Part shown: positions 1 to 8,589 of the stretch, one piece after another
Layout: every line of letters starts with the position of its first letter
Position numbering within the stretch: position 1 is the first letter of the stretch
From: an uncultured Chloroflexia bacterium
GTDB lineage: Bacteria; Chloroflexota; Limnocylindria; Limnocylindrales; CSP1-4
Direction of reading: 5' to 3'
Length of the DNA: 64,000 bases
Assembly: GCA_963828165.1 (NCBI GenBank)
Contig: CAWHDR010000001.1
Span: forward strand, 1,120,001-1,184,000
Position numbers and translations under genes: made by a program
Notes under the pieces: generated by a model
Told to the model about the DNA's origin: nothing
Databases searched by the model: none
Seen by the model: only the letters and a program-made list of their open reading frames with translations

Positions 1-985
1 GCTCGAGCCCGCGCCGGCACAACGCAAGGTCGCGCGCCGTGTCGGTCCAGAGCGCGATCAGGGCCTCGGCCGCGCGCCGGCGCTCGGCGGCCGGAGTTCT
101 GACGCTGGTGCCACCTTCGTCGCCGGCGTCGCCGTTGGCGTCGACGCCATCGGACGCGGCGGTGCTCGTGGCTTTCACGACGACCGAGGCCGGCTCTCCT
201 GCCCCTTCGCCCATCGCCGTGAGGGAGCCGGCACGAGCCACGGCCGCCCGCACGCCGGCCAGCCGCTCCGCCGGCCGCGCCGCGAGCAGGTCCAGCAGCG
301 ATCGACTCAATTCATCGCGGACCCGCAGCGCCTCGGGCTGACGCGCCCAGGCCAGTGCAAGCCCTGGTCGTCCCGCGGTGATGCGGGCCAGGCGGCTCGC
401 GAGCGGGGCGTCGGCGACCCCATGCTCGGCCAGGATGGCCTCGACGTCGCGGGTGGCGACCGGCCCGAGTCGGAGACGGGCGCAGCGCGAACGGATGGTC
501 GGCAGCAGCGGCTCTTCGGCGTCCGCGCAGAGGATCAGCGTCACCCTGGAAGGTGGCTCCTCCAGCGTCTTGAGCAAGGCGGCCTGCGCGTCCTCGTTCA
601 TGCGCTGGGCCGCCTCGACGATGGCCACCCGGGCCCCGCCCTCGACCGGCAGGAGCGCAAGGTCGGCGATGAGATCCCGGATCCCTCGGACACGAGCGCC
701 GGGGCCGCCGATGACCACCTGGCGTCCCGGTCCCTCGGGACCGACCCGATGGACGTCGGGGTGGCCGCCCGAGGCGACCAACCGGCACGCGCGACACGAT
801 CCGCAGGGGCGGTCGGCCGGATCGTCCGCGGTGCACAGCAATCCGGCGGCCAGATCCATTGCGAGCGTCGTCTTGCCGACGCCGGCGGGACCCACGAGCA
901 GGACGGCATGGGGCGCTCCGCCACGGATCATCGAGCCGACCGCGGCGAGTGCCGCCGGCTGTCCGCGGGTCCGCGCCCCATCCAT
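1..985 (-). CDS. holB: DNA polymerase III subunit delta' (runs off window start)
   Basis: Manual translation from ATG 985: MDGARTRGQPAALAAVGSMIRGGAPHAVLLVGPAGVGKTT...LLC...RPCGSCRAC...HPDV, and later MNEDAQAALLKTLEEPP. Walker A, Zn finger and clamp-loader motif. Missing from the ORF track because there is no stop in the window. Confidence 0.9.
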   Translation of the reverse strand, partial: MDGARTRGQPAALAAVGSMIRGGAPHAVLLVGPAGVGKTTLAMDLAAGLLCTADDPADRPCGSCRACRLVASGGHPDVHRVGPEGPGRQVVIGGPGARVRGIRDLIADLALLPVEGGARVAIVEAAQRMNEDAQAALLKTLEEPPSRVTLILCADAEEPLLPTIRSRCARLRLGPVATRDVEAILAEHGVADAPLASRLARITAGRPGLALAWARQPEALRVRDELSRSLLDLLAARPAERLAGVRAAVARAGSLTAMGEGAGEPASVVVKATSTAASDGVDANGDAGDEGGTSVRTPAAERRRAAEALIALWTDTARDLALCRRGLE

Positions 986-996
986 CCTGGATTCGC

Positions 997-2997
997 TCAG
1001 GCGGGGTCGCTCGAGCTGGCTGCGGTCTTGCGAGTGGTCTTCCGCTTCGGCTTGGCCTCGGCCCCGGCGGCGTCCCCGGCTGCGCTGTCGGCGGCTGTGG
1101 CCGCGGTCTTGCGCGTGGTCCGTCGCTTGGGTGCGGGTGCTTCCGCGGATCCGGTGCCCGGATCGGTGCTGGCCGGGGCCGGCTCCGTCGCGGTTGCGCT
1201 CGTCGCCGCCTTCCGGGTGGAGCGTCGCTTCGGCGCGGCCGACTGGCCGTCCTCGGCCGGCGCGACAGCGGACGCCGTCGTCTTGCGCGTGGTCCGTCGC
1301 TTCGGCGCTGCGGCCGTCGCAGCATCCTCGATGGCGGCTTCGGCCGTGATCGCCTCGGCTGGTGCGACCGCATCGGCCGCCACCGGACGGGTCTCGCTGG
1401 GGCGGGACTCCGAGGTGCCGGGCTTCTGGCTCACCTGCGCGCGCAGCATCGCCTCGAGCTCGGGCGGGACCTCGCTCCACGGCTCGCTCGACGAGGTCGC
1501 GCGCGGCGTGGCCTCGCGGGGGCGCTCGTCACGGCGGGCGGGTCCCCGGTCCTCGCGTGGTCCGCGGCTCGGTGCGGCGTTTCCGCCCGTCCGGCCGCTG
1601 ACATCGGGGTAGCGGTTGATGCCGCCACCGCCACCGCCGCGTCCGTAGCGCTCGCGCTCGACCGCGGACTGGTACGCGGCCCGTCCGCCGCGCGGTCCCC
1701 CGCGGCCGCCCTGCGGGCTACGGGCGTTGCCGCCACGGGCCCCGCGGCGCTGCTCGGCGATGAGGTACTCGGGAATCTCCGGCTCGTCGAAATCCTCGTC
1801 GTCATCGCTGAGCGGAGTCAGGTTCGCAGAGCTCGGGGCCGCAGTCGTGCCGAGCTGCGAGTCCCACACCGATCCGAACGGAGTGGTTCGCGGGCCGCGC
1901 GGGGCCTGCGGCTCCTCCTCGATGTCGTCGGGATCCTCGTCCAGGTCGCGGGTCGGACCCGAGGCGGCCGATGAGGCCGCTGGGGCGGAACGGTCCGCGC
2001 TCGCGGGAGCGTCGATCGCCTCGTCACGCCCACGGCCACGACCGCGGCCGCGTCCCCCACGACGGCGCCGACGGCGACCCGTCTCGTCCTCGCGGAGCTC
2101 GGTACCCTCGGCATCGTCGGCTCCGGCCGACTCGACCGGCTGGGGCGATCCGTCGGTCGACACGACCGCCGGCTCACCGAGATCATCGATCGTGAAGACC
2201 TCGGCGGCCGCCAGATCCGATTCGGTGAGGTTGCCGACCGCCTTCGAGAGGCGCTCCCCGGGCAGGGCGACGAGTCCGGCGTCGCTGTCGTGAGCGGCCC
2301 CGACCCCGTTCGTGGCGACGGCTCCGGCGCGACCGCGTCCGCCGCGCGAGCGCGATGTCGTCGAGGTCACGGGCTCCGCCTCGCCGGAGCGGCCACGACC
2401 GCGCCCGCCGCGACCACGACCGCCGCGACCGAGCCCGGTGCCCTCCGTCTGCTTGTCGGGAACCTCCGTCATCGACAGGTCCGCGTCATCGTCCGCCACG
2501 CGGCGGCCGGAGCGGGAACCCTTCTCGACGCGCGCGAGCTGGGTGATGTCGGTGAACAGGTCCGCGACCTCGATGAGGTCCGATGAGGTGTTGCCGCGGA
2601 AGCTGATGACCTCGCAGCGTACGCCCATCTCCTGGACGGCACGGATCGCCGGGGCGAAGTCGCCGTCGCCCGACACGACGATCGCGATATCCAGGTTCCG
2701 GGCCGTCTTCATCATGTCGACGACGAGCTCGATATCGAGGTTGGCCTTGACCTTGCCGTCGCCGTACTTGCGGATGTCCTTGCTGACGACCTTGTACCCA
2801 TGACGGCGCAGGAAGTCGTGGAAATTGCGCTGGTTCTCGTTTTCCGGGTCCAGCCCGGTGTATGCGTAGGCACGCACGAGATCGCGCCCGGCCGAGGCCG
2901 ACTTGAGAAGCGTGACGTAATCGATGTCCACGCCGGCGGCCTTTGCCGCAAAGAAGATGTTCGCCACGTCTACGAAGACGGCGACGTTTTTGCTCAC
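997..2997 (-). CDS. NYN (LabA/DUF88) ribonuclease-domain protein with long disordered RGG/Arg-rich, acidic and basic-repeat C-terminal tail
   Basis: GTG start at 2997 behind AAGGAG. NYN motifs VFVDVANI, KANLDIEL, IVVSGDGDFAP in the first ~155 aa; the rest is low complexity. Confidence 0.9.
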   Translation of the reverse strand: MSKNVAVFVDVANIFFAAKAAGVDIDYVTLLKSASAGRDLVRAYAYTGLDPENENQRNFHDFLRRHGYKVVSKDIRKYGDGKVKANLDIELVVDMMKTARNLDIAIVVSGDGDFAPAIRAVQEMGVRCEVISFRGNTSSDLIEVADLFTDITQLARVEKGSRSGRRVADDDADLSMTEVPDKQTEGTGLGRGGRGRGGRGRGRSGEAEPVTSTTSRSRGGRGRAGAVATNGVGAAHDSDAGLVALPGERLSKAVGNLTESDLAAAEVFTIDDLGEPAVVSTDGSPQPVESAGADDAEGTELREDETGRRRRRRGGRGRGRGRGRDEAIDAPASADRSAPAASSAASGPTRDLDEDPDDIEEEPQAPRGPRTTPFGSVWDSQLGTTAAPSSANLTPLSDDDEDFDEPEIPEYLIAEQRRGARGGNARSPQGGRGGPRGGRAAYQSAVERERYGRGGGGGGINRYPDVSGRTGGNAAPSRGPREDRGPARRDERPREATPRATSSSEPWSEVPPELEAMLRAQVSQKPGTSESRPSETRPVAADAVAPAEAITAEAAIEDAATAAAPKRRTTRKTTASAVAPAEDGQSAAPKRRSTRKAATSATATEPAPASTDPGTGSAEAPAPKRRTTRKTAATAADSAAGDAAGAEAKPKRKTTRKTAASSSDPA
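1021..1310 (-). repeat. Four intragenic PKR(R/K)(T/S)TRK basic repeats
   Basis: PKRRTTRKT, PKRRSTRKA, PKRRTTRKT, PKRKTTRKT; the DNA gtcttgcgcgtggtccgtcgctt recurs. Confidence 0.85.
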
Positions 2998-3064
2998 GAA
3001 TGACTCCTTGGTCCGATATATGGCGCTCGGCCGGCGCGATCGCGCTGCTCGGCGGAGCGTTGAG

Positions 3065-3529
3065 CTAGGTGCGGCGCGCCGTGATTCCCACCGCGGCCAC
3101 GGTTCGTTGGATGCGCGGACCGGCGAGCGCAAAACCTTGCGCCGCCCAGCGGCCCAGGGCCGCCGGATCGTCCGGGCGGACTGCCTCCACGAGGGTGCAG
3201 CCTTTGTTGCTCGCCGAGCGGATGAGGTCCTCGAGGAGGGCGTCCGTCACGCGGTCCGCGTCATGGTCGGGGTCGACGACCAGAAGGTCGATCGTGCCGA
3301 CGAAGCCGCCAGCACGTACCGAGGGCCGTAGGGCCAAGACGGCCCCACCTACGACGACACGCTGCGTCTCGGCCACGAAGATGCTGGCCTGCGGAAGGTA
3401 CACCAGCTGGCGCATGAGGTCCGCCGCATCGAGCGGGCTGGCACCACGGTCCACACGAAGGTCACCGTCGCTCAATGCGACGAGACGGTCGATATCCGTG
3501 ACACGGGCTGCTCGGATCAGGTATTCCAC
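3065..3529 (-). CDS. GNAT-family N-acetyltransferase-fold protein
   Basis: GTG start VEYLIRAARVTDIDRL; GNAT topology (GTIDLLVVDPDH...LLEDLIRSASNKGC...WAAQGF). The acetyl-CoA R/QxxGxG motif is degenerate. Confidence 0.7.
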   Translation of the reverse strand: MEYLIRAARVTDIDRLVALSDGDLRVDRGASPLDAADLMRQLVYLPQASIFVAETQRVVVGGAVLALRPSVRAGGFVGTIDLLVVDPDHDADRVTDALLEDLIRSASNKGCTLVEAVRPDDPAALGRWAAQGFALAGPRIQRTVAAVGITARRT

Positions 3530-3687
3530 GCCGAAGGTTCGTACCTCGCAGGACGGCGACCCGTCGCCCCTCGACCTGGGTCGTTGTGACCCTGGGCCGG
3601 TACCTCCTGGCCTGCGGACCCTGCCAACGGCGAGCATGAAGCTCGCGACACGCGCGAGGCGCACGGCGGGGGTGCGGCCGACCGGTA

Positions 3688-3715
3688 TTGCATTCAGGTC
3701 GCCGGTGGCTATGAT
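3688..3715 (+). promoter_or_regulatory. Sigma70-type promoter for the liv operon
   Basis: TTGCAT (3688-3693), 16 nt, TATGAT (3710-3715). Confidence 0.55.
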
Positions 3716-3945
3716 ACGGCATCGTTTCGGCGGTCACCTGCGCACCGCCCGAACACGGTCCTGCATCGCCGTCCGTCACGCACCGCCGCTCGCCCCGTCG
3801 ACGCCCTGGGAGGGCACCGTCGGTGGGACGCGAGCACGAGGGCGACGGGCGAGCCTCGCATCTCCGTTTCGGGAGCTGGCGGGAAGGCCCCGGCCGAAGG
3901 TCGCTCCGGAACCGCCGGACGATCGGACACTCAGGAGGAGAATGC

Positions 3946-5247
3946 ATGAAGCTCACCAAGGTCGGAGCCGTCGCCGCGAGTGCGGTGTTCGTCTTCGCCG
4001 CTTGCTCACCGGCCCCGGCTGGGTCTGCTGCTGCCCCTAGTGGCAGTGGAGGCGCCGCCGCACAGCCGGAGGTCTGCAAGAACAAGAAGGGCACGAGCAG
4101 CAACGAGATCCACGTGTACTCGTCGTTGCCGCGTCAGGGTTCGAACACGGCCCAGACGAACGCCCTCGTCGAGTCGATCAAGGAGATCCTTGACGGCAAG
4201 ACGGTCGGTTCATTCACGATCAAGTACACGGACCTCGACGACTCTTCGGCCGCCAACAATGGCGACTGGGACGGCGCCGTGGCCCAGCAGAACGCGACGA
4301 CCGCGGCCAACGACCCCGACGCGATGGTCTTCATCGGCCACTTCAACTCGGGTGCGGCCAAGCTCACGATCCCGATCCTCAATGCCGCCTGCCTCGTCAT
4401 GATCAGCCCCGCGAACACGTATCCGGGCCTGACCACGGCGGTCGAGGGCGTCACGGAGCCGGGCGAGCCGGATAGCTACTATCCGAACGGCTATCGCAAC
4501 TACTCGCGCGTCATCTCGACGGACAACAAGCAGGGTGGAGCCGGCGCGGCCTGGGCCAAGGAGCTCGGCGCCACGAAGGCCTACGTCCTCGACGACACCC
4601 AGGTCTACGGCAAGGGCCTTGCACGATCGTGGGCACTGTCCGCGAACGAGCTCGGCATCGAGGTCGTCAGCGCGAACGGCACGAGCGAAGGCTTCGACGC
4701 CAAGGCGACGGACTACGCCGCCCTGGCCCAGAAGGTCAAGGACTCGGGTGCCGACTTCGTCTACATCGGATCCATCACGGGCCAGAACACGGGCAAGCTC
4801 TGGAAGGACCTTCGGGCCGCCATGCCTGACATGAAGATCATGTCCGGCGACGGCGTGTTCGAGGAGTCGTGGTACGAGGGCACAGGCGAGGCTGGCAACA
4901 GCACCTACCTCACCTTCGGCGGCGTCGGTCCGAACGAGCAGACCTCGGACGCCGGCAAGAAGTGGGTCGCCGACTACAAGGCGGCGCACGACGGCGACGA
5001 TCCGCCCGTCTACGGCATCTACGGTGCGGCCGCGGCCCAGCTCGCGCTGGACGCCCTCACCCGAGCCGGGACCAACGACCGCTACGAGGTCCTGAAGAAC
5101 GTCTTCTCGACCACGGACTTCGCGTCGTACCTCGGCACGTTCTCCATCAAGCCGGACGGCGACACGACGCTGGCCGAGGCGACCGGTTATCAGGTCGTCG
5201 ACAGCTGGCCGCCGAAGTTCGAGAAGGTGCTCGCCGCGCCCGAGTGA
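3946..5247 (+). CDS. livK: Branched-chain amino acid ABC transporter substrate-binding lipoprotein
   Basis: AGGAGGAG RBS, lipobox FAAC, IGHFNSGAA and MISPANT motifs; first gene of the liv operon. Confidence 0.9.
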   Translation: MKLTKVGAVAASAVFVFAACSPAPAGSAAAPSGSGGAAAQPEVCKNKKGTSSNEIHVYSSLPRQGSNTAQTNALVESIKEILDGKTVGSFTIKYTDLDDSSAANNGDWDGAVAQQNATTAANDPDAMVFIGHFNSGAAKLTIPILNAACLVMISPANTYPGLTTAVEGVTEPGEPDSYYPNGYRNYSRVISTDNKQGGAGAAWAKELGATKAYVLDDTQVYGKGLARSWALSANELGIEVVSANGTSEGFDAKATDYAALAQKVKDSGADFVYIGSITGQNTGKLWKDLRAAMPDMKIMSGDGVFEESWYEGTGEAGNSTYLTFGGVGPNEQTSDAGKKWVADYKAAHDGDDPPVYGIYGAAAAQLALDALTRAGTNDRYEVLKNVFSTTDFASYLGTFSIKPDGDTTLAEATGYQVVDSWPPKFEKVLAAPE

Positions 5248-5274
5248 GGCAGGCGACAACGCCGTAACAGAACG

Positions 5275-5304
5275 GCGGGGGCGGACCACCAGGTCCGCCC
5301 CCGC
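5275..5304 (+). terminator. Intercistronic hairpin after livK
   Basis: Perfect 13-bp stem GCGGGGGCGGACC-acca-GGTCCGCCCCCGC. No U-tract, so it may be an mRNA stabiliser or partial terminator. Confidence 0.6.
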
Positions 5305-5345
5305 TGTCTATCCCACCGGAACTGCCACGGAGAACTGACCGCTCC

Positions 5346-6278
5346 ATGGACGACCAGCTCATCCAGACGATCATCATCGGTCTCTCCAACGGCCTCATCT
5401 ACGCCCTCGTGGCCCTCGGCTACACCCTCGTCTACGGGATCCTCCAGCTGATCAACTTCGCCCACGGCGACGTGTTCATGCTCGGCTCGATGATCGCGTT
5501 GACGCTGCTCCAGATCTTCGGTGTGGTGCCTGGACTCGACCTCCTGACCACGGTCGCCCTGATCTTCGCCGTGCTCGTCATCACGATGGCCATCACGGCG
5601 CTGCTGAACGTCTCGATCGAACGCGTCGCCTATCGACCGTTGCGCAACGCGCCCAAGCTCGCGCCGCTGATCTCGGCGATCGGCATGAGCTTCATCCTCC
5701 AGAACGTCGGCCTGCTCTGGAAGGGCCCCGCCAACCTGGGCTATCCGGACGTCATCCCGAACACGAACATCCTGACCTCGGTCCTTGGCCTGGACACGGC
5801 CATCGAGTTCTCGTTCAAGCAGTTCTTCGTCGCCATCATCACGATCCCGCTCCTGCTGGTCCTGATGTGGTTCGTCGGCAAGACGCGCCAGGGCAAGGCG
5901 ATGCGCGCGACGGCCCAGGATCCGGACACCGCCGGACTGATGGGCATCGACGTCAACCGGACGATCGCGATCACGTTCATCATCGCGGGTGCGCTCGCGG
6001 GCGCCGCCGGCCTCGTCCAGATCCTCTACAACAACACGACCGTGTGGAACCTGGGCTTCCGATTCGGGCTGAACGCCTTCACGTCCGCCGTGCTGGGCGG
6101 CATCGGCAACCTCCAGGGGGCCGTGCTGGGCGGGATCGTGCTGGGCCTCATCAACGCGTTCAGTGACCGCTATCTGTCGGCTCAATGGACGAACGCCATC
6201 GTCTTCGGCGTGCTGATCGCCGTCCTGGTGTTCCGCCCGACGGGCCTCCTCGGCCAGCAGCTGGCGGACCGGGCATGA
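5346..6278 (+). CDS. livH: Branched-chain amino acid ABC permease
   Basis: YALVALGYTLVYGILQLINFAHGD motif. Confidence 0.95.
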   Translation: MDDQLIQTIIIGLSNGLIYALVALGYTLVYGILQLINFAHGDVFMLGSMIALTLLQIFGVVPGLDLLTTVALIFAVLVITMAITALLNVSIERVAYRPLRNAPKLAPLISAIGMSFILQNVGLLWKGPANLGYPDVIPNTNILTSVLGLDTAIEFSFKQFFVAIITIPLLLVLMWFVGKTRQGKAMRATAQDPDTAGLMGIDVNRTIAITFIIAGALAGAAGLVQILYNNTTVWNLGFRFGLNAFTSAVLGGIGNLQGAVLGGIVLGLINAFSDRYLSAQWTNAIVFGVLIAVLVFRPTGLLGQQLADRA

Positions 6279-7729
6279 GCAGCAGCCTGGTCACCCCGGT
6301 CCGGGTCGAAAAGACCGGCGGCCTCTCCGCGTGGCTGCGCCACATGGGCGCAGCCGTCACGAGCTGGCCACAGTCCTATCGGGCGGCCTATGCGAAGAAT
6401 CGGCGCCGCACGATCCTGCTGACGCTCCTCGTCATCGGCGTCTTCCTCTACCCGATCATCTACCCGGCCATCCCGTCGAACATCACCCGGGCGCTGCCGC
6501 TTCCGAGCAGCACGGTGGTCATGTTCATGCTGATCTTCGGGATCATGGCCATCGGCCTCAATGTCGTCATCGGCTTCGCCGGCCTGCTGGACCTCGGGTA
6601 CGTGGCGTTCTACGCGATCGGCGCCTACACGGCCGCCTTCCTCGCATCACCCCACTTCGGCGGCGTGTCGGTCGTCCTGTTCTCGAGCGTGCCACCCGGC
6701 TTCCCGGGGATCCACCTGCCGTTCGCCCTGATCTTCCTGCTAGCGGCCGCCGTGGCCGCGGTCTTCGGCGCGCTGCTCGGCGCCCCGACCCTGCGCCTCC
6801 GTGGTGACTACCTCGCCATCGTGACGCTGGGATTCGGCGAGATCGTTCCGATCTTCTTCAAGAACCTCGTCAACGTGAACTTCACGTTCGGCCCCATCCA
6901 GCTCGTCAACGCCAACCTCACCGGCGGACCTCTCGGGATCAACCCCATCGATCCGCCCAGCTTCCTCGGGTTCAAGTTCGGCGTGATCAGCGGGTTCGCG
7001 CCGATCTATCTCGGCATCGCGCTCGTGGTGATCGCGATCGTCATCGCGCGAAACCTGGAACGTTCGCGTATGGGACGCGCCTGGATGGCCATCCGCGAGG
7101 ACGAGATCGCCGCCGAGATGATGGGCGTCAACACCGTCCGGACCAAGCTCCTCGCGTTCGCCCTGGGGGCGGCCTTCGCGGGCGTCGCGGGTGCGCTGCA
7201 GGCGTCCTACCAGGGCGCGACGACGTCCGACTTCTTCATGTTCTCGACGTCGATCCTGGTGGTGATCATGATCATCCTGGGCGGCATCGGGAACATCTGG
7301 GGCGTGCTCGTCGGGGCCATCGTCGTCCAGTACGTCGACAAGACCCTGCTGGCTTGGGTCGGTAACCGCCTGTCGGATGTCGGCGGCGCGACCGGGCTCG
7401 AGCAGTTGAGCGACATCAACCCCTCGTCCTTCAGCTTCCTGCTGCTCGGCATCGCGCTCGTCGTGATGATGCGGTTCCGTCCGGAAGGCTTCCTGCCGAG
7501 CCGCCAGCGCGCCGCGGAGATGCACACGGCCCCACCGGGCCAGGCGATCGGCTCGATCGGCCTCATCGAGGAGGAGGGTCTCGTGCCCGAGCTCGATCCG
7601 ACCGAGCCCGGCGGTGAGGAGGATCCTGAGCAAGCGGAGGTGCCCGGCGAGGAGCCGCCCGGCCAGACCATCGCAGAAAGCCGCGGCGAAGTCACCGGCG
7701 ATGGCCCCGACGACGAGACGCCACGATGA
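6275..7729 (+). CDS. livM: Branched-chain amino acid ABC permease
   Basis: GLNVVIGFAGLLDLGYVAF and LRLRGDYLAIVTLGFGEI; ATGA overlap with livH. Confidence 0.95.
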   Translation: MSSSLVTPVRVEKTGGLSAWLRHMGAAVTSWPQSYRAAYAKNRRRTILLTLLVIGVFLYPIIYPAIPSNITRALPLPSSTVVMFMLIFGIMAIGLNVVIGFAGLLDLGYVAFYAIGAYTAAFLASPHFGGVSVVLFSSVPPGFPGIHLPFALIFLLAAAVAAVFGALLGAPTLRLRGDYLAIVTLGFGEIVPIFFKNLVNVNFTFGPIQLVNANLTGGPLGINPIDPPSFLGFKFGVISGFAPIYLGIALVVIAIVIARNLERSRMGRAWMAIREDEIAAEMMGVNTVRTKLLAFALGAAFAGVAGALQASYQGATTSDFFMFSTSILVVIMIILGGIGNIWGVLVGAIVVQYVDKTLLAWVGNRLSDVGGATGLEQLSDINPSSFSFLLLGIALVVMMRFRPEGFLPSRQRAAEMHTAPPGQAIGSIGLIEEEGLVPELDPTEPGGEEDPEQAEVPGEEPPGQTIAESRGEVTGDGPDDETPR

Positions 7730-8589
7730 CGACGGGCGTCACCTACGAGCAGGGGGCCACGCCGTTGACCGGCCAGGTACCGGACGACCAGATCCTGGTC
7801 CGCGCCCGGAACGTGACGAAGCGGTTCGGCGGCCTGGTGGCGGTCAACGCCGTCGATTTCGACATCCCGCGGGGCAGCATCGTCTCGCTCATCGGGCCGA
7901 ACGGCGCCGGCAAGACGACGTTCTTCAACATGATCACCGGCGCCTACGTGCCGACGAGCGGCGAGATCTCGTTCGACGGTCGCGACATCGTGACGACGAA
8001 GGGCAGCAAGGTCCGCTCGCTCAAGCCGCACCAGGTCACCCAGCTCGGGATCGGTCGGACCTTCCAGAACATCCGCCTGTTCGGCACGATGTCCGCCCTC
8101 GACAACGTGCTCGTCGGCGAGCACGTCCACCTGCGCAGCCGCTGGTGGGACGCGGTCCTGCGCACGCCCCGCAACAACGTGGAGGAAGAGGCGAGCGTCG
8201 AGCGTGCGCACGAGCTGCTCAAGTTCGTCGGACTCGACGAACGGCCCCACGCCTGGGCGCGGAACCTGCCCTACGGCGACCAGCGCCGCCTCGAGATCGC
8301 GCGAGCCCTCGCGACCAGCCCCAAGCTGCTGCTTCTCGACGAGCCGACCGCAGGCATGAACGCCTCGGAGACGCGTGACCTGACCGACTTCATCCGTCGC
8401 CTGCGCTCCGAGCTCGGCCTGACCGTCCTGCTCATCGAGCACGACATGCGCGTCGTCATGGGCATCAGCGACCGGGTCACGGTGCTCGACTACGGCGAGG
8501 TGCTGGCCGAAGGCAGCCCCGCCGAGGTTCGCGCCAATCCCCGGGTCATCGAGGCGTACCTGGGCCGCGGCGCGGCGGAGGGAGCCTGA
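7726..8589 (+). CDS. livG: Branched-chain amino acid ABC ATPase
   Basis: GPNGAGKTT, RTFQNIRLF, LPYGDQRRLEIARALA. Confidence 0.95.
   Translation: MTTGVTYEQGATPLTGQVPDDQILVRARNVTKRFGGLVAVNAVDFDIPRGSIVSLIGPNGAGKTTFFNMITGAYVPTSGEISFDGRDIVTTKGSKVRSLKPHQVTQLGIGRTFQNIRLFGTMSALDNVLVGEHVHLRSRWWDAVLRTPRNNVEEEASVERAHELLKFVGLDERPHAWARNLPYGDQRRLEIARALATSPKLLLLDEPTAGMNASETRDLTDFIRRLRSELGLTVLLIEHDMRVVMGISDRVTVLDYGEVLAEGSPAEVRANPRVIEAYLGRGAAEGA

Follow-up and report, generated by a model that had tools for sequence, protein, structure and literature searches.

Bacterial NYN proteins of the Pfam family PF01936 are largely without a tested function, and scaffold-type tails on bacterial ribonucleases are known mainly from RNase E. 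The intrinsically disordered regions of RNase E are reported to scaffold degradosome clients and bacterial ribonucleoprotein bodies (BR-bodies) (PMC13405055, PMC11321048). The 2017 classification of PIN-like domains describes bacterial PF01936 proteins as stand-alone proteins or OST-HTH fusions (PMC5499597). The NYN domain of MARF1 is described as an endoribonuclease (PMC6294520), and a CRISPR-associated NYN protein of Bacteroides is reported to be a Mn-dependent, non-specific single-stranded ribonuclease (10.1101/2024.04.08.588522). MARF1, DNE1, and N4BP1 are reported to enter mRNA-decay condensates via extra binding modules (PMC6294520, 10.1101/2021.10.01.462782, PMC13586276). In this study, we analysed a window of 64,000 nucleotides from an uncultured soil bacterium of the class Limnocylindria (Chloroflexota; assembly GCA_963828165.1, contig CAWHDR010000001.1, positions 1,120,001 to 1,184,000 of the forward strand). 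On its minus strand, between a GNAT acetyltransferase gene and holB (DNA polymerase III delta'), one open reading frame (ORF; 997..2997, stop codon at 997-999) encodes a 666-aa protein made of an NYN domain and a disordered tail, which we call the NYN-tail protein. Judging by its sequence, we hold at about even confidence that it is a housekeeping endonuclease of single-stranded RNA with an RNA-tethering, partner-docking disordered tail, that is, a hub nuclease. What is new here is the combination of a known nuclease domain with a known scaffold grammar. In the literature, we found no description of an NYN protein with such a tail, nor of this Limnocylindria gene.

The original prediction, which was made from the letters of this stretch alone, had described an NYN domain followed by about 500 aa of low-complexity sequence. 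This description was correct, with the Pfam match at residues 4-151 and a tail of 511 aa, and every tail string that it quoted is present in the translated gene. The NYN domain (2545..2988, minus strand) matched PF01936 with an E-value of 5.3e-36 and 124.7 bits against a cut-off of 24.2, over profile positions 1-144 of 145. The Pfam scan of the 666-aa protein gave no other family, and no OST-HTH. The sole solved structure matched by sequence was 2QIP (E 2e-17), the LabA-like protein VPA0982 of Vibrio parahaemolyticus. The full-length AlphaFold2 (AF2) model scored the NYN part poorly as well as the tail, the alignment there being nearly invariant, and a model of the domain alone (residues 1-190), built on 18 diverse sequences, was used instead. 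Its mean predicted local distance difference test score (pLDDT) was 82.6, with core blocks at 84-98 and disorder from residue 157. The top Foldseek match of this model was again 2QIP (E 7.5e-16; template modelling (TM) score 0.74/0.86, with 0.86 on the target), and the mouse and human MARF1 NYN domains came next (TM 0.72-0.73).

PF01936 domains are predicted to hold four metal-binding acidic residues (PMC5499597). D10, N13, D88, D94, D111, and D113 of the NYN-tail protein are invariant in the 18 sequences, which come from three families of the class and from five NYN proteins used as outgroups. In 119 close relatives, these six residues vary hardly or not at all (D10 and N13 are kept in 90% of rows or more), and the acidic residues of the domain agree with the 2QIP alignment. 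By its predicted fold and its complete predicted acidic site, the NYN-tail protein belongs to the LabA-like type of PF01936 (NYN.COG1432). Cyanobacterial LabA is known only genetically, and the NYN-tail protein might, like LabA, be a non-catalytic RNA-binding regulator or scaffold whose NYN fold binds without cleaving. According to the 2017 classification, most PF01936 proteins have no shown nuclease activity and NYN.COG1432 members carry 1-5 conserved acidic residues (PMC5499597), which would suit such a role. However, all predicted metal-site acidic residues are invariant in the 18 distant sequences and invariant or almost so in the 119 close ones, which is hard to explain without catalysis, and we consider a non-catalytic role very unlikely.

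The tail comprises residues 156-666 and contains 65 R, 14 K, 38 D, and 42 E, with a charged fraction of 0.31, a net charge per residue of about 0, and 8 RGG motifs. Hydrophobic residues make up 10.8% of the tail versus 36.8% of the NYN domain. The charge segregation of the tail lies 7.1 standard deviations above 1000 shuffles, none of which reached the observed value. In the full-length AF2 model (mean pLDDT 44), the tail is predicted to be unstructured with short helices at residues 260-266, 410-416, 440-451, and 512-523, and all four of these predicted helices fall exactly on conserved islands.

A word-indexed protein search gave 2335 proteins with E<=0.001 among 8000 scored candidates. The best 120 of these 2335 all carry PF01936, one of them together with PF00593. 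Most of the best relatives have 600-690 aa, and many of them cover the whole query (100%), with identities of 56-94%. A scan of genome contigs gave at least 493 confirmed relatives among the 600 pattern matches listed; the best 80 of these loci were labelled as Chloroflexota lineages in 79 cases (many of them Candidatus Limnocylindrales/Limnocylindria) and as Saccharimonadales in one. Using NYN residues 1-190 as the query, we also surveyed 200 genomes of the class Limnocylindria, which fall into five families (f1 to f5); the unpublished genomes G159, G123, and G112 are counted in these tallies, and the pattern is unchanged by them. The NYN part was present in 60/60 genomes of f1 at 83-99% identity, in 7/7 of f2 (genomes of about 1.1 Mb) at 74-77%, and in 61/66 of f4 at 64-71%. 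In f3, only 3/66 genomes had matches, which were weak and short, and the single f5 genome had none (0/1).

In alignments of 19 and 119 relatives, the NYN domain is nearly invariant, and the tail consists of invariant blocks alternating with gapped, unalignable spacers. The 75 complete genes taken from the best 80 loci, all of f1, gave a residue-level conservation map over 73 species-level sequences, in which hardly any change is seen in the NYN domain and in about ten islands of the tail, and the linkers drift with insertions and deletions. Islands that stay conserved while the linkers drift are what the original prediction had led us to expect, and the alignments of 19, 119, and 73 sequences, together with the pattern counts in the 75 genes, bear this out. 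Of its four named islands, three are specific to one family, and the fourth, EIPEYL, persists in f2 in a degenerate form (GVPEYLATERR).

Averaged over all pairs of the 44 species that have both genes, the amino-acid distance was 0.054 in the NYN domain, 0.091 in the islands, 0.756 in the linkers, and 0.40 in holB. Selection on the NYN domain is therefore very strong, the domain changing about 7 times more slowly than holB. Such a rate, with a nonsynonymous divergence of about 0 in most close pairs, would be expected of an enzyme with an invariant substrate, and the NYN-tail protein could be a nuclease of ribosome, rRNA, or tRNA maturation that acts on a very conserved ribonucleoprotein and whose Arg/Gly-rich and acidic tail blocks hold pre-ribosomal RNA as nucleolar proteins do. 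Bacterial NYN genes have been linked by neighbourhood to tRNA and rRNA processing in the 2017 classification (PMC5499597), and cyanobacterial LabA/NYN proteins are reported to co-precipitate with the ribosome-associated Rbp3 (PMC12232666). However, the conserved neighbourhood contains no ribosomal, rRNA, or tRNA gene, the Rfam scan of the window gave no match, and f3 manages without the gene. A role in ribosome or tRNA maturation is thus unlikely in our view.

The islands were followed along the tail, with all coordinates on the minus strand. Directly after the NYN domain lies an invariant linker, RVEKGSRSGRRVA..DLSMTEVPDKQTEG (residues 156-186; 2440..2532), which is predicted to be disordered (pLDDT about 36). 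Its strict pattern SGRRVA..DLSMTEVP[DE]K was found in 67/75 f1 and 2/2 f2 genes, and its core P[DA]K[QE] also in 8/8 f4 genes. The first RGG/RG box (residues 188-203; 2389..2436) has a pattern that drifts across species. It is followed by the island LPGERL...LTExDLAAAEVFTLDDLG (residues 244-272; 2182..2268), on which the short predicted helix 260-266 falls; LPGE[RKH]L occurs in 73/75 and AEVF in 48/75 f1 genes. The tract RRRRRRGGRGRGRGRGR (residues 308-324; 2026..2076) is the sole tail island present in all three families. The exact 17-mer is present in 61 of the 75 f1 genes, with near-versions in 13 and none in 1, and R6GGRGRG was found in 74/75 f1 and 8/8 f4 genes, with RRRRRRGGRGRR as the f2 counterpart. 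The codons of RRRRRRGGRGRGRGRGR vary freely, every Arg and Gly codon being used at each position, which indicates selection at the level of the protein, not of the DNA.

Further along, the island PRGPRTTPFGSVWDSQLGT (residues 366-384; 1846..1902) has the pattern FGS[VIF]WD.Q, which was found in 74/75 f1, 0/2 f2, and 0/8 f4 genes. An acidic run with the island DDEDFDEPEIPEYLIAEQRRG (residues 399-419; 1741..1803) carries the predicted helix 410-416; the strict pattern E[IV]PEYL..E occurs in 57/75 f1 genes, and the columns of this island are invariant in the 119 sequences. The island GGRAAYQSAxERERYG...GGINRYPDVSGR (residues 434-469; 1591..1698) carries the predicted helix 440-451, with RYPDV in 62/75 f1 genes and the very strict AYQ..RERYG in 37/75. 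The helix predicted at 512-523 on the island SSEPWSEVPPELEAMLRAQV (residues 503-522; 1432..1491) is the best-scored tail segment (block pLDDT 75), and W.E.PPELE occurs in 65/75 f1 genes. The tail ends with four basic repeats PKRR(T/S)TRK (1027..1305; residues 565-572, 589-596, 623-630, and 650-657), between which Ala/Thr/Glu spacers drift.

The f2 and f4 genes that were read have disordered tails of 300-380 residues. The f2 tail retains SGRRVA..DLSMTEVPDKQ, TLDDLG, RRRRRRGGRGRR, and GVPEYLATERR, and ends in AAKPAAKP repeats as the counterpart of the basic repeats. The f4 tail retains the P-A-K-E linker core, R6GGRGRG, and C-terminal repeats of the KPRRSRSR type; its own islands are PEFGFREA, EIGWQEVDD, EREYSFEEADAxTLAELGL, and a C-terminal EGIWQRFRSAR. 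Judged by these comparisons, only RRRRRRGGRGR, the linker core P-[DA]-K-[QE], and the basic repeats at the C-terminus appear to be class-wide, and every other island is specific to a family. A search of the remaining ORFs of the own genome gave no tail islands, apart from chance matches to very short patterns. We observed that the own genome (G000) has two FtsZ-like genes, at C1:2585316-2586575 (plus strand) and C1:~991010-992374 (minus strand), the second with an N-terminal hydrophobic segment. The C-terminal peptides of their products, DDLEIPSFLRRK and DDLDVPSFLRRGG, resemble the tail island DEPEIPEYLIAEQRRG (EIPEYL...RR), and this island may be an FtsZ-tail mimic.

Outside the class, the best NYN matches in 300 Chloroflexota genomes were at most 48% identical. 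Eight of these loci were fetched; four were parsed as proteins of 170-237 aa, and one has the NYN domain at the C-terminal end of a different protein. Apart from that one, the Chloroflexota NYN proteins read outside the class are small and stand-alone, in line with the statement of the original prediction that LabA/DUF88 proteins normally are small or carry OST-HTH. Long open frames around NYN matches in other Chloroflexota were rejected as an effect of high GC. When tail residues 240-530 were searched against 1.84 billion cluster representatives, 185 clusters had E<=0.001, all of them full-length relatives or fragments. In the ESM Atlas, no look-alike of the tail reached 0.9, and the best, at 0.81-0.82, were the protein's own family. 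From these searches, the tail appears to be a class-restricted invention on an old domain, with most of its motifs at the family level.

The longest form of the NYN-tail ORF in frame starts at TTG 3132. From the sequence, we take the GTG at 2997 to be the true start, because a Shine-Dalgarno sequence AAGGAG (3004..3009, minus strand; read from the sequence) lies 6 nt upstream of it, this form does not overlap the upstream gene, and the homologues start at the same residue, with MSKNV or MGKNV as their N-terminus. The highest codon-position GC is at the third position (GC3 0.877 in the NYN part and 0.834 in the tail). In 4/5 close pairs of homologues, the nonsynonymous divergence (dN) of the NYN part was about 0 with a synonymous divergence (dS) of 0.13-0.29, and in the fifth, more distant pair (L079), dN was 0.030 and dN/dS was 0.066. 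The linkers had a dN/dS of 0.31-0.50 in the close pairs and 0.77 in the more distant fifth pair. Because the island and linker classes of this comparison were defined by conservation, the contrast between them is partly circular, and only the NYN value and the linkers being below 1 are independent. The NYN-tail gene is a genuine coding sequence under selection and no mere high-GC open frame. Over the tail and holB (2-1612), both strands also contain long alternative-frame ORFs of up to 536 aa, which are a by-product of 75% GC and have no support. Metatranscriptome contigs covering the gene come from 4 studies, which is compatible with expression but no proof of transcription. One of 802 nt crosses the NYN/holB junction (821-1625), which is no proof of a single transcript, and none of the sequencing runs had more than a 0.20 share of the words.

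We believe that the hub reading is favoured by the identity of the NYN domain, the conservation of the islands, the single copy of the gene, and its presence throughout f1 (60/60) and f2 (7/7) and in most of f4 (61/66), as far as sequences can tell. In this reading, the NYN domain would cut single-stranded RNA with a divalent metal. Three basic modules, namely the RGG box, the RRRRRRGGRGRGR tract, and the four PKRRTTRK repeats, would hold RNA near the exposed NYN active site, and five or six islands, mostly helix-forming or aromatic and with acidic runs alongside, would serve as docking sites for one or more partner proteins or for further copies of the tail. With its blocky polyampholyte layout, the tail could self-associate multivalently with RNA, and condensate-like behaviour is plausible from these features. 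The NYN-tail protein, the GNAT acetyltransferase, and holB would be made from one operon, and the pathway would be the decay or processing of mRNA, in which RNase Y, RNase J, and PNPase also act.

RNase E/G (PF10150) had no match in the NYN-tail protein, in the own genome (3.3 Mb, 87.7% complete), or in 201 genomes of the class. The own genome has RNase J, RNase Y, and PNPase; its RNase J begins at its catalytic core, its RNase Y has the canonical layout, and neither carries a disordered tail; PNPase has no tail of this kind either. This agrees with the original prediction, in which the absence of a tail from the RNase E, J, or Y of the genome was to be checked, with RNase E/G itself not found. 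That prediction had further proposed that the protein possibly substitutes for the RNase E scaffold. RNase Y, the canonical decay-initiating endonuclease, is present in 81/81 class genomes searched, including 26/26 of f3 (the tally includes the unpublished genome G067), and a substitution for RNase E is therefore not required. The own genome also has one NYN gene, two FEN-type 5'-3' exonuclease genes, and Rho, and no YacP-type NYN was found in it. The lineage is an RNase Y/J organism, like Bacillus, and the NYN-tail protein adds to that set. As a side observation, the PNPase gene of the own genome (G000:C1:~2795030-2797610, plus strand) matched its model at 1-227 and 282-611 in one frame. An insert of about 200 aa between these two parts reads like a DnaQ/epsilon-type DEDDh 3'-5' exonuclease, and its S1 end is in another frame, which is a frameshift or an assembly error.

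In a more far-reaching version, Limnocylindria would have an RNA-decay body independent of RNase E, with the NYN-tail protein as its organising scaffold. The invariant RRRRRRGGRGRGR tract and the basic repeats would collect RNA there, recruitment of decay enzymes, or of the co-encoded clamp-loader subunit, would fall to the family-specific helical islands, and acetylation of the tail by the GNAT enzyme would tune the assembly. We regard this version as unlikely.

Several observations weigh against a hub nuclease in RNA decay. As of Matelska 2017, bacterial PF01936 proteins are given as having no demonstrated function (PMC5499597). The family f3 lacks the NYN-tail gene (3/66 weak matches) yet has the same RNase Y (26/26), so that the function of the gene must be dispensable or replaced there. 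The island block 360-530 matched 59/60 f1 genomes and none in the other families (0/7 f2, 0/66 f3, 0/66 f4, and 0/1 f5). Family-specific islands seem to fit poorly with docking on RNase Y, RNase J, or PNPase; since these enzymes are highly conserved while the islands differ by family, the islands are more likely to bind faster-evolving partners or each other. By its conservation, the R6GGRGR tract alone seems conserved enough for a class-wide target, which would be RNA or a conserved enzyme. In addition to RNA, DNA could be a ligand of the basic repeats. Finally, the conserved genomic link is only to holB and GNAT, and no RNA-decay genes are included.

The GNAT acetyltransferase gene (3065..3664, minus strand; Pfam Acetyltransf_1, E 1.8e-7) lies upstream of the NYN-tail gene, and its true start probably lies further inside the ORF, since homology is seen only from about residue 33-46. 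holB (2..985, minus strand; Pfam and NCBIfam) begins 11 nt downstream of the NYN stop codon, and its far end lies beyond the window start. Among the best 80 loci, GNAT is upstream in 75, with no room at the contig end in 4 of the 5 misses, and holB is downstream in 77, the 3 misses being contig ends, and so the predicted position of the locus upstream of holB was confirmed. In f2, holB is directly downstream and GNAT was not detected in 2/2 loci. In f4, GNAT is upstream in 6/8 NYN-bearing loci (the misses are L107 and L111) and also in L105, where the NYN gene was not parsed, and holB is downstream after a gap of 650-1100 nt (loci L106-L113). No convincing coding-strand ORF was seen in this gap in the three loci read; the stretch may represent a leader of holB, a small gene, or an RNA. 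In f3 and f5, holB is present without an NYN-tail or GNAT neighbour. In one f3 locus (L125, low end), the frame after holB begins MMRTVVGVRF..., which we take to resemble a PSP1/RicT-type start, as after holB in Bacillus. A simple promoter and terminator scan of the minus strand (1-4200) found nothing between GNAT, NYN, and holB, which is no proof of one transcript.

In another explanation, the NYN-tail protein is a replication- or nucleoid-coupled nuclease, produced along with the clamp-loader subunit delta', held on DNA by histone-like repeats, and removing RNA (primers, R-loops, or transcripts) at the replisome. The placement of holB after the gene in 77/80 f1 loci, and also in f2 and f4, makes the link class-deep, and the island sequences and holB both diverge between families. 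The AAKPAAKP tails of f2 look like DNA-binding tails of the histone H1/HU type. On the other hand, such synteny is weak evidence, since operons commonly mix replication genes with unrelated genes, and in f4 the two genes are 650-1100 nt apart. Two FEN-type 5'-3' exonuclease genes are already present in the genome, and NYN domains are known biochemically for cleaving RNA. A complex prediction of holB (48-row alignment) with tail residues 240-530, run without controls, scored 0.00 against a mark of 0.32, which tells neither for nor against an interaction. We consider a replisome-coupled role distinctly unlikely, and if the holB link were nevertheless functional, it would connect RNA cleavage to the replisome.

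Apparent 'Rosetta stone' fusions of the tail with holB in metagenome gene calls (P0145, P0178, P0207, P0258, and P0262) were rejected as frame-shift artefacts, which counts against the replisome-coupled reading. Ten odd-length matches were scanned of 150 listed; 5 had a delta' domain, 1 had NYN, and 4 had no domain match. The joining stretch was garbled and out of frame in all 4 tail-holB calls read (for P0207, only a Pfam scan was made). Such artefacts are possible because stop codons are scarce in high-GC DNA. An acylphosphatase-like gene follows holB in the own genome (G000:C1:~1119514-1119800, minus strand), just before the window, and an acylphosphatase Pfam match at the end of the merged gene call P0178 agrees with this. 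Divergent from the GNAT-NYN-holB row, the window contains at 3823-8589 (plus strand) a cluster of the branched-chain amino-acid type ABC transporter, with a substrate-binding protein, two permeases, and an ATPase, as read from the translations.

We return to the hub nuclease. In three of the five sampled families of an abundant soil and freshwater class, a second, unrelated nuclease carries an RNase E-like sequence grammar. Should the tail recruit partners or condense with RNA, this would mean more than one origin of the degradosome/BR-body design, and the protein would be a compact, expressible system in which ten short motifs could be mutated to study how disordered tails organise RNA metabolism in an RNase Y/J-type bacterium. 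If the scaffold version is true, the RNase E degradosome/BR-body principle would have been re-invented convergently on a PIN-fold nuclease.

Compared with the LabA-like NYN protein of 2QIP, the NYN-tail protein has the same domain family (E 2e-17), the same fold (TM 0.86), and the same acidic residues in DxxN...D...SGDGDF. Known LabA-like NYN proteins are described as stand-alone proteins of about 160-240 aa or as fusions with OST-HTH/LOTUS (PMC5499597), whereas here the domain carries a conserved disordered tail of 510 aa. The eukaryotic P-body endoribonucleases MARF1, DNE1, and N4BP1 have the NYN fold in common with it (TM 0.72-0.73 for MARF1) at a sequence identity of 13-16%. These enzymes use folded RRM, LOTUS, or KH domains, whereas the NYN-tail protein uses a long disordered tail, and we found no evidence for common descent of the eukaryotic and Limnocylindria NYN architectures.

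The C-terminal scaffold of RNase E in E. coli and Caulobacter likewise follows a nuclease domain and is a long disordered region in which Arg-rich segments, acidic blocks, and short conserved microdomains lie. The NYN-tail protein similarly combines a long disordered region, whose Arg-rich segments are putatively RNA-binding, with short conserved microdomains, which is the sequence pattern of a degradosome scaffold. The catalytic domain of RNase E is unrelated to NYN, as PF10150 matched neither the protein nor the genome, and there is no sequence relation between the two proteins. An NCBIfam match to mycobacterial RNase E, with E 0.003 and 15 bits where the cut-off is 1400, was due to a low-complexity Arg-rich stretch and was discarded. 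In cyanobacterial RNase E, an Arg-rich nonapeptide binds PNPase. This nonapeptide is, like the tract in the NYN-tail protein, a strictly conserved six-Arg run in the disordered tail of a nuclease; unlike the nonapeptide, the six-Arg run of the NYN-tail protein is internal and continues into GGRGRGR.

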